A DNA stretch of 24,650 nucleotides from Gemmatimonadota bacterium. GTDB lineage: Bacteria; Gemmatimonadota; Gemmatimonadetes; Longimicrobiales; RSA9. Position 1 is the first letter of the stretch. The number at the start of each line of letters is the position of its first letter. Where the stretch lies: assembly GCA_012027055.1 (NCBI GenBank), contig VEPF01000411.1, forward strand, positions 1 to 24,650. The letters are read 5' to 3'. A program made the position numbers and the translations under genes. Below are positions 6,771-12,312 of this stretch, one piece after another. The notes beneath the pieces are model-generated. The model saw only the letters and a list, made by a program, of their open reading frames with translations, made no database searches and was not told where the DNA came from.

Positions 6771-7826
6771 TCACCATTCTGCGCGCACCGTCCGGGTGCT
6801 GGCGCCGGCGGCTTCCAGGGCCGCACGGACCGCTGCGAGCACCCGCGTGCGCGTGGCTTCCAGGGGTTCGCCGACCAGGGCGCCGGAGGCCTTCACGTGT
6901 CCCCCGCCGCCCAAGGCACGGGCGATGGCGTTGACATCGACATCTCCGGCGGAACGCAGGGAGACCTTGGTCGCCCCGTCGGCGGTCTCGCGGAATAGCA
7001 GCGCGATGACGGTACCCTCGACGGAGCGGGCGTGCTCGACCAGCCCTTCCAGGTCGTCGGCGTTCGCGCCGAGGCGTTCGACGACGCCGCGTTCGACACT
7101 GATGAAGGTGATCGGGTAAGGATCATCCACCTCCAGGTGATCCAGGGCGTAGCGCAGCAACTCGACGCGGCGCAGCGGAACGGTCGCGTAGATGCGGCGA
7201 TACACCTGTTCGGGATCCACCCCCTGTTCGATGAGCTCGCCGGCGATCTCGTGGGCGCGCCGGCGAGTATTGGAGAAGCGGAATGATCCCGTGTCCGTCA
7301 CGATGGCCGTGTAGATGCCTTCGCGCACGGCGGCCGGCCACGGGCGGGCCACTTCCGCCACGCCCAGCAGATCGTACACCAGCTCGCCCGTGGCGCAAGC
7401 GGCGGCATCCTGCAGGACGATGCCGGCGATGGCCGCATCGCTCGCGACGTGATGGTCGAGCACCAGCACGTGCGCGCGTCCCAGGCTGCCCGCGATGCGC
7501 CCGATGCGGCGAGGCTCGCAGGTGTCGAGCACGAACACGGTATCGGCCGCGCGCAGGACACTCGCCGTCTCGGGGTGGGCCGGGTCCCGCACGATGCCCT
7601 GGTCGGGCAGCAGGTGCCGGTAAAGCCCCGGGAAGGGGGTGGGGTTGACGATGTGCACGACCTTGCCCAGGCCGAGGAGCCAGGCCGCCACGGCGGCCGC
7701 GGCGCCGGCCCCATCGCCGTCCGCGTTGACGTGGGTGGTGAGCACGACCCGCCCGGCCGCCGCGAGCGCGGCCGCGATTTCCTCCAGGGCGGCGCGGCGG
7801 TGTGCGGGGACCGGTGATCCCGTCAT
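6771..7826 (-). CDS. nrnA: DHH/DHHA1 phosphoesterase, bifunctional oligoribonuclease / pAp phosphatase NrnA
   Basis: THVNADGDG, VLDT, LDHH, TDTGSFRFS, SLRS and GGGHVKASG motifs are present. GGAG lies upstream of ATG 7826. Confidence 0.9.
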   Translation of the reverse strand: MTGSPVPAHRRAALEEIAAALAAAGRVVLTTHVNADGDGAGAAAAVAAWLLGLGKVVHIVNPTPFPGLYRHLLPDQGIVRDPAHPETASVLRAADTVFVLDTCEPRRIGRIAGSLGRAHVLVLDHHVASDAAIAGIVLQDAAACATGELVYDLLGVAEVARPWPAAVREGIYTAIVTDTGSFRFSNTRRRAHEIAGELIEQGVDPEQVYRRIYATVPLRRVELLRYALDHLEVDDPYPITFISVERGVVERLGANADDLEGLVEHARSVEGTVIALLFRETADGATKVSLRSAGDVDVNAIARALGGGGHVKASGALVGEPLEATRTRVLAAVRAALEAAGASTRTVRAEW

Positions 7827-7867: not shown

Positions 7868-8518
7868 CTACGCGTAGGTGGATGCGATATGTACGGCGCG
7901 CGTCGAGGCGCGCCCGTGGATGGATCCCTGGCGGAGCGCGGCGAGGAATGCACGCGGCTCATCGGCGAAGGGCGGCACTTCGACCCAGGCACCCCCTACT
8001 TCCGCGAGCGTGTGGGCGTCCGAGCCGGCGCCCAGGGGAAGGTCCCGGGCCTGACCCCAGGCCACGGCCCGCTCGTTCAGGCGGGAATCGTGGAGGCGCG
8101 CGTTGAAGCCTTCCACCGCGTCCACCAGGTCCTCGATCTCCGGCAGGATGCGCCCTCCGCCACCCTTGCCGCTCGCGAACGGATGCGGCACGTAGACGAT
8201 GCCCCCCTGCGCGCGGATGCGGCGGCAGGTTTCGCGGGCGGGCGTGCCCTTCGGAATCAGCTCATTGATGAACAGCCCGATGATGTCCACGCCCTCCGCC
8301 GTCTTCACTTCCTCGCCGGCGATCACCAGGTCGGGATGGCGCGCCCGGAGTCGGAGCGCGGTGCCGATCTGGTTGTGGTCCGTCACGCACACGCGATCGA
8401 GTCCACGCGCCCCGAGCCCCGCCACCAGCCTGACGGGGTCGGTCAGGCAGTCGAAGGAATGGCGCGTGTGCAGATGCATGTCTATGCGCCAGGGGCGCGT
8501 CTCAGCAACTCTTGCCAT
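7868..8518 (-). CDS. PHP-domain metal-dependent phosphoesterase (TrpH/YciV-like); may originally extend to 7823
   Basis: Complete PHP metal set: DMHLHT, TDHN, GEEV, PHPF, GSDAH. It ends at TAG 7870-7868, but the frame continues to a TGA overlapping the nrnA ATG. The start overlaps the coaE end by 37 nt. Confidence 0.85.
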   Translation of the reverse strand: MARVAETRPWRIDMHLHTRHSFDCLTDPVRLVAGLGARGLDRVCVTDHNQIGTALRLRARHPDLVIAGEEVKTAEGVDIIGLFINELIPKGTPARETCRRIRAQGGIVYVPHPFASGKGGGGRILPEIEDLVDAVEGFNARLHDSRLNERAVAWGQARDLPLGAGSDAHTLAEVGGAWVEVPPFADEPRAFLAALRQGSIHGRASTRAVHIASTYA

Positions 8519-9699
8519 ACCTCTTCCGCGGCCCGCTCCAGTTCGGCGAGCGAGCCGCCGTTGTCGATCACGAAGGTGGCGAGTCGGCGGTTCTCGGCGG
8601 CGGGATCCTGTGCCGCGATCATGGCATCCGCGTCGGCCGGCGCCAGGCCGCGGTCCGCGATGATCCGGGCCCGTCGCACAGCCGGCGGTGCGTCCACCAG
8701 CACGACCGCATCGAAGCGGTCTTCCGCGGCCGTCTCGAACAGCAGCGGGATCATGTGCACCACCAGCCGCCTGCCGCTGGCGGCGAGGGCTCGTTCCCGT
8801 TCGATCTGCAGCCGTTCCACCTCGGGGTGCACGATCTGCTCGAGTTCGCGGCGCTTGCGGGCATCGGCGAAAACCACCCGGCGCAGCGCCGCGCGATCGA
8901 TTTCACCATCCGGCTGCAGCACGCCGGTGCCAAAATGGCGGCGCACCTCCTCGTAGCCGGTCGAGCCGCGCGCCACCGCCACCCGGGCCAGCTCGTCCGC
9001 ATCGATGACCACACCACCCAGCCGTTCCCAGACGCGGGCCACGGCGGACTTGCCGCTCCCGATGTTGCCGGTCAGCCCGACGCGCAGCGGCCGGCGGCGG
9101 CGCCGGCGCACCAGCCAGGCGCCTGCCGCGCGCGCCAGCAGCAGGCCGAGCAGCACGGTGCTGAGCGCGCCGAGCGCGTGCGCGACAATGTGCCAGCTGC
9201 CACCCGCCGCGTACCCGGCCAGTACCGAAAGGCCGCTCCAGCCGAGCACGCCCAGCAGGTCGTAGGCCAGGTACTTGCCGTAGGGCATGCGCGACATGCC
9301 CGCGAACCAGGGCATGAGCGTGCGCACGAAGGAGATGAAGCGCGCAACCGTGACCGCCAGGATGGAGCGCCGCCGGAACAGCTGCTGCGCCACCCGCTCG
9401 TAACGCCGCCAGAGCCGGCCCACGCGACCGGAGCTGGCAGCCACGCGGTGGCCGCCCAGCCGACCCGCCAGGTAGCCGATCTGATCGCCCAGCAGGGCCC
9501 CGACCACGGTAGCGGCCAGGACGTGCTCCAGGCGGAAGTAGCCCTGGTAAGCCAGGAAGGCGGCCACCAGTACGGTCGCTTCGGCCGGGATCAGCAGCCC
9601 GATGAAGAACGCCGTCTCGGTGCCCGTGATCAGCAGCACCAGCCACGGGCCCGCCTCCCGCAGGACCTCGATGAGCTGCTGGAATTGCGCCTGGTTCAC
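8482..9699 (-). CDS. coaE: DedA (VTT/SNARE-associated) membrane domain fused to dephospho-CoA kinase
   Basis: The N-terminal ~195 aa are DedA-like (ETAFFIGLLIPAE, GDQIGY, ARFISFVR, FAGMSRMPY..YL.Y). The C-terminal ~200 aa are CoaE (VGLTGNIGSGKS P-loop, IDADELAR, DRAALR..VF, IVHPEV, IPLLFE, VIDNGGS). One continuous frame from a GTG start. Confidence 0.9.
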   Translation of the reverse strand: MNQAQFQQLIEVLREAGPWLVLLITGTETAFFIGLLIPAEATVLVAAFLAYQGYFRLEHVLAATVVGALLGDQIGYLAGRLGGHRVAASSGRVGRLWRRYERVAQQLFRRRSILAVTVARFISFVRTLMPWFAGMSRMPYGKYLAYDLLGVLGWSGLSVLAGYAAGGSWHIVAHALGALSTVLLGLLLARAAGAWLVRRRRRRPLRVGLTGNIGSGKSAVARVWERLGGVVIDADELARVAVARGSTGYEEVRRHFGTGVLQPDGEIDRAALRRVVFADARKRRELEQIVHPEVERLQIERERALAASGRRLVVHMIPLLFETAAEDRFDAVVLVDAPPAVRRARIIADRGLAPADADAMIAAQDPAAENRRLATFVIDNGGSLAELERAAEEVWQELLRRAPGA

Positions 9700-9733: not shown

Positions 9734-10003
9734 TCACGGCCGGCGTGCGCCGCCCCGTGCGGCCTCGCGCGCCCAGCGCAGGTAGCGCTCCACTTGCGCG
9801 GGCTCCGGCATGCCGCCGCCGGCCCCGAAGGCGGTCTCCAGCCGCCATTGCAGGTAGGCGCGCGGGGGCAGGGGCAGGAATGGTGGCCGCCGCCACCAGC
9901 CGCGCGCGCGGAAACGCCAGGCCGCGTGCAGCATCGGCCCGATCAGCAGCGGGCGCCGCAGCACCAGCAGTGCGAAACGGAACACGGAGCGGCTGTCGCG
10001 CAA
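9734..10003 (-). CDS. Small hypothetical protein, Trp/Pro/Arg-rich, first gene of the minus-strand run
   Basis: The C-terminal part of ORF 9734..10162 reads as protein (AWRFRARGWWRRPPFLPLPPRAYLQWRLETAFG...RYLRW). The start is uncertain: TTG 10003 or GTG 9985. Confidence 0.6.
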   Translation of the reverse strand: MRDSRSVFRFALLVLRRPLLIGPMLHAAWRFRARGWWRRPPFLPLPPRAYLQWRLETAFGAGGGMPEPAQVERYLRWAREAARGGARRP

Positions 10004-10070
10004 GGCAGCTTGGCGTCGCGAGGTGAAGGAGGTATCGCTCGAGGCGGCAAAGATAGGCGGTCCCGAGGGG

Positions 10071-10099
10071 TGGCCGCCAGAGCGTCGCACCGGTATTAT
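10071..10099 (+). promoter_or_regulatory. Possible promoter for the E1 gene
   Basis: TGGCCG-17nt-TATTAT (10094-10099) in the divergent spacer. The -10 is good and the -35 is weak. Confidence 0.3.
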
Positions 10100-10188
10100 T
10101 GGTCCCGCATCGGGCGCGGGCGACTGCGCTAACTCGTTACCGCAGCGTGCTTTCACTTTCACTCCACGACCAGGCGGATACCCGTCTC

Positions 10189-12312
10189 ATGGCGACCAGG
10201 TCCAAAGCGCGCGCACCCTCGGAGAAGGCCCTCGATCACGGCACGCTGCGCCAGTTCTACCGCACCATGCTCGCCGCGCGACGCACCGACGATCAGGAGA
10301 TCCTGCTCAAGCGTCAGAACCGCATCTTCTTCCAGATTTCCGGAGCGGGCCACGAGGCGGTGCAGGTTGCGGTGGCGGCGCACCTCCGTCCCGGCTCGGA
10401 CTGGATCTACCCGTATTACCGGGACCGCGCCCTGACCCAGGCGCTCGGCGTGACGCCCTACGAGCATTTGCTGCAGGCTGTTGCCGCGGAAGCCGATCCG
10501 GCGAGCGGCGGCCGGCAGATGCCCTCCCACTGGGGCCACCGTGAATACCGGATCGTCAGTTCGTCCTCGCCCACCGGCACGCAATTCCTCCAGGCCGTGG
10601 GTTGCGTCGAGGCCGGCGTGCGCGCGCAGCGGGACGAGCGCATGCGCGCCGCGCTCGAGGAGTTCGCCGCGGACGAGATCGCGCTCTGTACCACCGGGGA
10701 CGGGACGACCTCGCAAGGCGAGTTCTGGGAGGCGCTCAACACCGCGTGCAACCTGAAGCTTCCGGTGCTCTTCCTGGTGGAAGACAACGGCTACGCGATT
10801 TCCGTCCCGGTGGAAGTGAACACGGCCGGCGGCAGCATCAGCAAGCTGCTCACGGGCCTGCCGGACCTCTACATCGAGGAGTGCGATGGCACGGATGTGC
10901 TCGGCAGCTATGCGGCGGCGGGCCGGGCGGTAGCGCACTGCCGGGCGCACCGCGGCCCGGCCCTGCTGCACGCGCACGTGGTGCGGCCCTATTCGCATTC
11001 CATGTCCGATGACGAGCGCCTGTACCGTCCGGAGCACGAGCGGCGGCTGGAGGCGGAGCGGGACCCATTGGTCAGCTTCCGCCGCCATCTGCTCGCCGTG
11101 GGTGCCGCCACCGAGGCAGAGCTGACCGCGCTCGAGCGGGAAGTCGAACAGGAAGTGAAGGACGCCTCGGATCGCGCGCTGGCGCAGCCCCAGCCCCCGC
11201 GCGACACGGCCACGCGCTTTCTCTTCTCCGCGGCGGTGGATCCGCGCGCCCCCGCGTTCGACACCGAATCCCGGCCGCAGTTCAGCGGGGCTGAGACCAC
11301 CATGGTGGACCTAATCAACGGCTGCCTGCGGGACGAGCTGGAGCGCGACCCGCGGGTGATCGTCTTCGGCGAGGACGTGGCGGATGCGAGCCGCGAGGAG
11401 GCGCTGCCGGAGGTGAAGGGCAAGGGCGGCGTCTTCAAGTGCACCTACGGTCTGCAGCGCCGCTTCGGCTCGAATCGCGTCTTCAACTCGCCGCTCGCGG
11501 AGGCGAACATCGTCGGCCGCGCGATCGGCATGGCCACGCGCGGGCTCAAGCCGGTCGTCGAGATCCAGTTCTTCGACTACATCTGGACGGCCATGATGCA
11601 GATCCGCGACGAGCTGGCCACCATGCGTTATCGCTCCGGCGGCTGCTGGAGCGCGCCCGTGGTGATCCGCGTCGCCTCTGGCGGTTACCTGAAGGGCGGC
11701 GCCATCTACCACTCGCAGACCGGCGAGACGCTCTTCACGCACACCCCCGGCCTGCACGTGGTGCTGCCCTCCAACGCGCTCGACGCCAACGGGCTGTTGC
11801 GCACCGCCATCCGCTGCGAGGACCCGGTCATCTTCCTCGAGCACAAGCACCTGTACCGCCAGGTCTACAACAAGGGCTGCTATCCCGGCCCGGACTTCAT
11901 GATCCCGTTCGGCAAGGCGGCGGTGGTGCGCCCCGGCGAGGATCTCACGGTAGTGGCCTGTGGCGCGCTCGTGAAGCGCTCGCTGGACGCCGCGCGGGCA
12001 GCCGCCGAGCAGGGCATCGACGTCGAGGTGATCGATCTGCGCTCGCTGAATCCGCTCGACCTGGAAACCATCGCGGCCTCGGTGCGCAAGACCGGCAAGG
12101 TGATCGTCGCGCACGAGGACTCGCTTTCCTGGGGCATCGGCTCCGAGATCGCCGCCCGCATCGCCGATGAGCTGTTCCCGTGGCTGGACGGGCCCGTACG
12201 CCGGGTCGCTTCGCTCGATACCTGGGTGGCCTACGCGCCCCAGCTCGAGGACGTCATCCTCCCCCAGACTGATGACGTACTGAAGGCGGTCGTGTCGCTG
12301 CACGCCTGGTAG
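10189..12312 (+). CDS. 2-oxoacid dehydrogenase E1, fused alpha+beta subunits (branched-chain/2-oxoisovalerate type likely)
   Basis: The alpha part has [13 protein letters not shown], the TPP-binding GDG...NN motif ([15 protein letters not shown]...EDNG) and HSMSDD. The beta part has [27 protein letters not shown] and [10 protein letters not shown]. Start moved to ATG 10189. Confidence 0.92.

Follow-up and report, generated by a model that had tools for sequence, protein, structure and literature searches.

A DedA-family membrane domain and dephospho-CoA kinase joined in one reading frame in Longimicrobiales-type Gemmatimonadota

In a 24,650-nucleotide stretch of a Gemmatimonadota metagenome-assembled genome (MAG) of the order Longimicrobiales, lineage RSA9 (assembly GCA_012027055.1, contig VEPF01000411.1; hereafter, the window), a gene on the minus strand (8482 to 9699) encodes a complete DedA/VTT membrane domain followed by a complete dephospho-coenzyme A (CoA) kinase, CoaE, in a single open frame of 405 amino acids. 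A preliminary description of this DNA, made from the letters alone, had read one DedA-CoaE frame here, which the Pfam domains and gap-free assemblies from independent studies bore out. On balance, the reading we favor is that of a bifunctional inner-membrane protein in which a functional DedA domain and the only dephospho-CoA kinase detected in the cell would each keep its own job, with the final reaction in making CoA probably done at the membrane. The fusion is real, belongs to one lineage only, is evolutionarily labile, and combines two known families.

The frame starts with GTG at 9699, a choice backed by homologues that start at the same position (e.g., MNQAQF in P0003), and ends with a TAG stop at 8484 to 8482. 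Three runs, each from a different study (bioreactor metagenomes of 2018 and 2020 and a metagenome of 2024), gave Logan contigs that crossed the junction between the two domains without a gap, and the stop or frameshift error in the linker that the preliminary description had allowed for was not found, since none of these assemblies showed an indel there. Their sole difference from the window was a C-to-A change at 9131, turning Arg190 of the last helix into Leu. This position is A in all three other assemblies and C in the window, and Leu, which fits a membrane helix better than Arg, is the likelier residue. An artefact (a chimeric contig or a frameshift from sequencing or assembly), to which the fragmented state of the MAG (G000; 481 contigs, 85% complete) might point, is practically out of the question and was ruled out by the identical assembly of the junction in three studies, by a near-identical fused protein (P0002) on other contigs, by hundreds of homologues, and by the fused protein of a relative (P0320), found in identical form in 288 indexed blocks of the assembly collection and with one and the same gene order at the three sites displayed. 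In one gene call on the window's own contig (P0013, 8482 to 9288), the product was given 268 amino acids from the internal Met138 and annotated as CoaE only, hiding the membrane half; this start falls within the DedA domain, and the homologues argue against it. P0118, a 76% identical relative of 268 amino acids, likewise holds the CoaE domain only. Sampled words of the window were absent from the RNA run of the source study.

The kinase half (residues 205 to 405; minus strand, 8485 to 9087) is a complete CoaE. The Pfam CoaE model PF01121 matched residues 207 to 385 with 165 bits (cut-off, 27), covering profile positions 3 to 179 of 180, and the CoaE equivalog TIGR00152 scored 132 bits (cut-off, 65.6). 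The P-loop GNIGSGKS (residues 211 to 218, nucleotides 9046 to 9069) and the DAD motif (residues 233 to 235) were invariant across 22 fused homologues and aligned with solved CoaE structures, and the lid arginines were conserved as well. The AlphaFold2 model of this half had a predicted local distance difference test score (pLDDT) of about 90, and Foldseek matched it to 4ttp, 4i1u, 9dug, and 1jjv with template modeling (TM) scores of 0.84 to 0.87 and a root mean square deviation (rmsd) of 1.9 to 2.7 Å. By sequence, the best match in the PDB was 6n39, the mycobacterial CoaE-GrpB, and 2if2 could also be aligned. The fused gene was the only PF01121 match in G000 and in five relatives that are 90 to 100% complete (G465, G483, G437, G449, and G224), so that the search for a second coaE, advised at the outset, returned none in any of them. 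On sequence grounds, the fused protein is most likely the housekeeping dephospho-CoA kinase of the cell. Searches of the 85%-complete G000 recovered CoaD but neither coaBC nor coaX. Because five better relatives (three with the fused gene and two with split genes) do have coaBC and coaX, we read their lack in G000 as most likely due to MAG incompleteness and the lineage as a de novo CoA maker. For the same reason, a salvage-only organism importing dephospho-CoA was rejected.

The membrane half (residues 1 to 203; minus strand, 9091 to 9699) was modeled as helical with a pLDDT of 82. Pfam VTT_dom (PF09335) matched residues 38 to 163 (nucleotides 9211 to 9588) with 62 bits (cut-off, 33.9), covering profile positions 2 to 122 of 123. 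Identity to Escherichia coli YqjA is only 22%. Residues E28, E40, R120, and R126 align with E39, D51, R130, and R136 of YqjA, all of them essential in that protein (bioRxiv 10.64898/2026.09.20.752871). The 22 fused proteins share about 50 invariant columns in the kinase part and about 45 in the DedA part, so that both halves are under comparable constraint; counterparts of the four charged residues that YqjA cannot do without are among the invariant DedA-half columns, and the P/G motifs are kept in both re-entrant loops. As part of the bifunctional reading, and with the same better-than-even confidence, we take this half for a working DedA-type domain, such as those that bind or transport lipids with phosphate head groups. 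Membership in the UptA or YqjA/YghB types was rejected, since the equivalog scores were far below the cut-offs: 58.7 to 60.8 bits versus 250 and 32 to 35 bits versus 300 for the UptA models NF052604 and NF052605, and 66 to 68 bits versus 236 for the YqjA/YghB-type model NF008102 (PRK10847), a model that another paralogue of G000 (L002) passes with 253 bits. The DedA half is thus a separate paralogue, distinct from both types. G000 has four VTT-domain genes in all. One of its contigs (C273) carries a short YqaA-like VTT paralogue (L005:1468-1956) that overlaps the upstream end of a 493-amino-acid open reading frame (ORF) on the same strand.

The two halves meet at residues 197 to 206 (VRRRRRRPLR; minus strand, 9082 to 9111). 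The junction sequence first quoted for it (WLVRRRRRRPLRVGLTG) is correct, and the frame reads ...AWLVRRRRRRPLRVGLTGNIGSGKS. Pro204 aligns with the CoaE start Met of split relatives, confirming that the usual methionine has been replaced by proline, but what had been called a poly-Arg linker turns out to be the DedA family's ordinary basic tail on the cytoplasmic side, as the arginine run aligns with the basic C terminus of YqjA itself (...LWKKKYGNR). Across the fused relatives, the linkers range from 0 to about 25 residues and always open with a basic run after the last helix. The model places the end of the last helix at residue 200 and the start of CoaE strand 1 at residue 205, so that the kinase would be held close to the membrane surface. 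YqjA has been modeled with three spanning helices and two re-entrant hairpins, with an N-out/C-in topology in four of five predictors and with W102 and H105 facing the cytoplasm (bioRxiv 10.64898/2026.09.20.752871). The helix pattern of our model fits the same arrangement, loop 80 to 111, with ten arginines, aligns with the W102/H105 region, and both this basic loop and the tail fit the positive-inside rule. Because of the C-in topology of YqjA and the position of the basic loop, the tail and hence the kinase are most likely on the cytoplasmic side, and the membrane tethering of the kinase suggested earlier fits these analogies. A structure search and the literature (bioRxiv 10.64898/2026.09.20.752871) gave no solved structure for the DedA family.

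To place the fusion among known proteins, we relied on database searches and genome scans. When 5.8 billion proteins were searched through a word index, more than 110 came back that have a length of about 403 amino acids, are 51 to 83% identical, and all carry both Pfam domains; as this search admits only proteins of 0.55 to 1.75 times the query length, stand-alone forms could not be counted with it, and the genome scans are less biased. Named matches in the databases came from Longimicrobiales or Gemmatimonadota MAGs and carried the name “dephospho-CoA kinase” only, and one gene caller, as noted above, cut off the membrane half. Most of 401 genomes of the phylum (a tally to which the unpublished G157, on which nothing else here depends, contributes one count only) had a plain CoaE of about 200 amino acids, and full-length matches occurred only in the order of the window. 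Within this order we scanned 251 genomes of three families. Clean fusions were present in 16 of the 73 genomes of the window's family (f1), with two more genomes having a single in-frame TGA; in family f2, 5 of 107 were fused and 2 had an in-frame stop; and no fusion was found in the 71 genomes of family f3. An exhaustive HMMER scan of 1.84 billion cluster representatives yielded about 7 to 10 two-domain clusters, all 41 to 56% identical, the rest being single-domain. The aforementioned P0320 is labeled “Candidatus Cloacimonetes” but lies in the synteny typical of Longimicrobiales (2-oxoacid dehydrogenase E1 gene, small gene, VTT-CoaE, PHP, and DHH; L155 to L157); its label is probably a binning error, and we rejected it as a case of the fusion outside Gemmatimonadota. 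An AlphaFold DB cluster representative, A0A6A3WPB9 (468 amino acids), aligned over both halves (364 residues) with an rmsd of 13 Å and 23% identity; it may be an independent VTT-CoaE architecture elsewhere. A protein-language-model atlas search gave no usable match. As far as the databases searched show, the architecture appears confined to Longimicrobiales-type Gemmatimonadota. We found no paper pairing DedA with CoaE or dephospho-CoA kinase, in agreement with the initial statement that no characterized example was known, and a literature search for DedA-family fusions or domain architectures returned only general gene-fusion studies, none of which mentions the DedA family.

The fusion comes from neighboring genes. 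In sister genera within f1 (G027, G289, G380, G266, and at least 10 more), dedA and coaE are separate and adjacent. Their split junctions are typical of translational coupling and have the form TGATG (L011, L013, and L025), ATGA (L096), or TGA followed by an in-frame ATG or GTG, including TGAATG (L102 and L119), while others have gaps of a few bases (L012, L113, L116, and L118) or an in-frame TAG (L007). At several loci, the VTT gene and coaE share one frame parted by a single TGA or TAG (L102, L113, L116, L007, L014, and L119), and these may represent recent fissions, recent prefusion states, or stop read-through. The old CoaE methionine is retained in fused L103, L105, L109, and P0003. Fusion was also recurrent. 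In a maximum likelihood tree of the concatenated DedA and CoaE parts from 33 loci, there were five changes between the fused and split states, at least two of them forced by well-supported branches. The fusion arose by loss of the stop between translationally coupled dedA and coaE and, given the five changes on the tree, such a loss has happened repeatedly, the same join arising several times within one soil and bioreactor lineage. Fission, from fused to split, may have occurred as well.

Downstream of the fused gene, the operon continues with two genes on the same strand. The first (7868 to 8518) encodes a PHP/PHP_C metallo-phosphoesterase, with 50.9 bits for Pfam PHP_C and a CehA/McbA-like match of 58.8 bits that is below cut-off. 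This gene overlaps the fused gene's end or, should Met14 be the true start, begins 2 nucleotides past that gene's stop, and a PDB sequence search with the PHP protein returned no match. The second (6771 to 7826) encodes a DHH/DHHA1, NrnA-like protein, matched by Pfam DHH and DHHA1 and with 83 bits for the NrnA equivalog versus a cut-off of 350. In loci without PHP (L023 and L108), the DHH gene begins about 30 nucleotides past coaE. These neighbors can also be joined to CoaE: family f2 has a CoaE-PHP fusion of 437 amino acids (L116:2107-3417), a CoaE-PHP cluster in the ESM Atlas has 507 members, most of them from Gemmatimonadota, and P0160 (594 amino acids) is a fusion of CoaE with the NrnA-like DHH/DHHA1. 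Other fusion partners of CoaE were GrpB, NUDIX, metallo-beta-lactamase (MBL), PIG-L, a Rce1-like membrane protease, an epimerase, DUF169, and an M18 peptidase. Thus, the statement that bacterial CoaE is normally a stand-alone enzyme holds for most genomes of the phylum, which have a plain CoaE, but has to be qualified in view of so many fusion partners.

The scenario we propose begins with an operon, [VTT gene]-coaE-php-nrnA, in which dedA and coaE would have been translationally coupled. Loss of the stop between these two would have given one chain, with the kinase hanging four residues past the last membrane helix at the cytoplasmic face. The fusion would then fix a 1:1 coexpression and the membrane proximity of the last CoA step and would bring no new chemistry: the product would be translated as one chain, both activities would be retained, and direct mechanistic coupling between them would be absent.

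Several findings weigh against this reading of two domains with separate jobs. The inter-domain confidence of the AlphaFold2 model was modest, with a predicted TM score (pTM) of 0.56. In the 251 genomes of the order, every match to the DedA subfamily of the window (type 1) at an E value of ≤1e-40 adjoins or is fused to coaE. A second VTT subfamily, YdjX/TVP38-like (type 2), lies directly upstream of coaE in at least six genomes (G180, G453, G479, G511, G519, and L026); it scores above the threshold of Pfam VTT (50.7 to 59.7 bits), has no similarity to the window's DedA half (BLASTP E value, 2.6), and is without the two-arginine motif, and its stand-alone members are named YdjX (TVP38/TMEM64 family) by JGI. 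Type 2 is also fused to CoaE, in G407 (435 amino acids, L140:198-1502) and in nine database clusters from NCBI, JGI, ENA, and Logan (P0272 to P0280). Finally, family f2 has triple fusions of VTT, CoaE, PHP, and PHP_C of 644 amino acids (L008:1444-3375 and L117:1432-3363), with open frames of comparable length, about 630 to 650 amino acids, in L010, L020, and L115; together with the CoaE-PHP fusions they support a functional link between CoaE and PHP. With two VTT subfamilies, the strict co-location of type 1, and the extension to PHP, the association seems too persistent for a neutral accident.

The main alternative, which we consider doubtful, is that VTT, CoaE, and PHP, perhaps with NrnA, are functionally coupled as one membrane-associated machine. 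In one version, the VTT domain would deliver or flip a phosphorylated substrate for the kinase or the phosphoesterase, that is, trapping by phosphorylation, as first suggested for this gene; in another, CoA made at the membrane would feed a lipid process served by the VTT domain. Coupling would account for two VTT subfamilies without pairwise similarity being independently adjacent and fused to CoaE, for a type-1 paralogue never found away from coaE, and for the DedA-CoaE-PHP, CoaE-PHP, and CoaE-DHH fusions that tie the whole operon together, and in the model the very short linker of the window protein would hold the kinase at the cytoplasmic mouth of the VTT domain.

However, the VTT gene comes and goes among sister genomes of one genus. 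In the CoaE tree, loci with and without it are interleaved within the family, with at least five changes forced by well-supported branches. The fused G467 is sister (100/87 support) to G461, which has a plain CoaE directly after a gene for a type II secretion system G (T2SS-G)-like pseudopilin and no VTT gene, so CoaE does not need the VTT domain. Type-2-linked kinases nest among type-1-linked ones, therefore the VTT gene would have been replaced in place at least twice, and no type-2 gene was found in genomes with a type-1 fusion. A third membrane protein upstream of coaE (L122, L124, and L133; G471, G489, and G485) gave a weak VTT match of 27 bits, below the Pfam threshold, and an E value of 0.13 against a YqaA-like paralogue. 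Also against coupling, the linker length varies as described above, the relatives have a de novo CoA pathway (coaBC and coaX) so that salvage uptake is not required, coupled neighbors in high-G+C genomes fuse easily, and CoaE fuses with many unrelated partners. E. coli coaD, for its part, was long misnamed kdtB owing to its gene neighborhood, and the CoaD profile model carries the name coaD_prev_kdtB. The reported cargos of DedA proteins are lipids (bioRxiv 10.64898/2026.09.20.752871), and none of these proteins is known to transport nucleotides that are soluble in water. We see it as unlikely that VTT proteins, CoaE, and PHP form a physical membrane unit in which the VTT protein presents or translocates a phosphate-bearing compound of the pantetheine/CoA type, or a lipid, on which the kinase or phosphoesterase acts; if true, a DedA-superfamily protein outside lipid-carrier recycling would for the first time have a biochemical partner and a hint of its substrate.

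Two further explanations would undo the bifunctional reading from either end, and we find both improbable. In the first, the frame would yield two proteins, by internal initiation (for example, at a GTG in codon 197, just before the arginine run) or by cleavage in the tail, leaving CoaE largely soluble. The old CoaE methionine kept in some fused relatives would suit this explanation, and one gene caller did choose an internal start (P0013). Yet direct reading of the sequence showed no good Shine-Dalgarno motif before codon 197, most fused relatives have neither a methionine nor a conserved start at the junction, and the start of P0013 lies inside the DedA domain. In the second, to which we give slightly less credit still, the DedA half would have decayed into a mere membrane anchor and only the kinase would matter. 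Eukaryotic dephospho-CoA kinases, yeast Cab5 among them, do reside at membranes or lipid droplets although they have no transporter domain (PMC4076087), but here the two halves are conserved to the same degree, the DedA half retains counterparts of E39, D51, R130, and R136 together with the P/G motifs in both re-entrant loops, and a single helix would suffice as an anchor.

Compared to stand-alone CoaE from E. coli, Haemophilus influenzae, and Thermus thermophilus (PDB 1vhl, 1jjv, 1uf9, and 4ttp), the kinase half is alike in fold (TM scores of 0.84 to 0.87), P-loop (GxxxxGKS), DAD motif, and equivalog score; unlike them, it has no start codon of its own and begins four residues after a membrane helix of a polytopic domain. 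With E. coli YqjA/YghB and Bacillus subtilis UptA/PetA, the DedA half shares the VTT domain, the four charged residues, the basic loop, and the basic tail, but it differs in its 22% identity to YqjA, its scores below the equivalog cut-offs, and its presence only beside or fused to coaE. The mycobacterial CoaE-GrpB/UPF0157 (PDB 6n39; PRK03333) is likewise a two-domain bacterial CoaE of about 400 amino acids, although its extra domain is soluble and C-terminal and that of the window protein is membrane-embedded and N-terminal. The CoaE-PHP fusions of Gemmatimonadota and the DedA-CoaE-PHP fusions of the sister family involve the same operon and would have arisen by the same stop-loss mechanism, the difference being that the PHP gene of the window is separate and merely overlaps or abuts the fused gene. 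Among eukaryotes, human COASY has its dephospho-CoA kinase fused to PPAT, and we know of no VTT domain in eukaryotic membrane-bound dephospho-CoA kinases. In human COASY and yeast Cab5, the last CoA step is likewise at a membrane surface, by independent origin, Cab5 being located on lipid droplets and the endoplasmic reticulum (PMC4076087).

Few DedA/VTT proteins, a family that includes human TMEM41B and VMP1, have a settled role, these being the members shown to move undecaprenyl phosphate or phosphatidylethanolamine. Two VTT subfamilies repeatedly joined to the same soluble enzyme, sometimes plus a third one, make a natural “Rosetta stone” and, as far as can be judged from genomes, a rare natural lead on possible working partners of a DedA-superfamily protein: is CoA synthesis something that the membrane domain depends on, supplies, or positions? 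If the bifunctional reading is right, bacteria, like yeast, can have an essential and normally soluble cofactor step fixed permanently to a membrane. If the join is merely a tolerated accident, it offers a clean case of recurrent fusion, fission, and paralogue replacement in one bacterial family.

On the upstream side, a divergent gene on the plus strand (10099 to 12312) encodes a fused alpha/beta E1 of a 2-oxoacid dehydrogenase, with NCBIfam matches to pyruvate dehydrogenase (PDH) E1 alpha and beta. Throughout Longimicrobiales, the E1 gene diverges from a string ordered coaE-php-nrnA, with PHP or DHH missing in some loci, and the E1 gene marks the ancestral upstream border of the coaE string. 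The distance from the E1 gene to coaE is 120 to 560 nucleotides in loci without a VTT gene and about 1.4 to 1.6 kb, up to the start of the CoaE domain, in those with one; because this distance grows where the VTT gene is present, the latter was inserted upstream of an older coaE string. A small ORF upstream of the fused gene in the window (minus strand, 9734 to 10162) is unlike the T2SS-G-like pseudopilin that relatives (L129 and L155:3596-4000) have ahead of the VTT gene or coaE.

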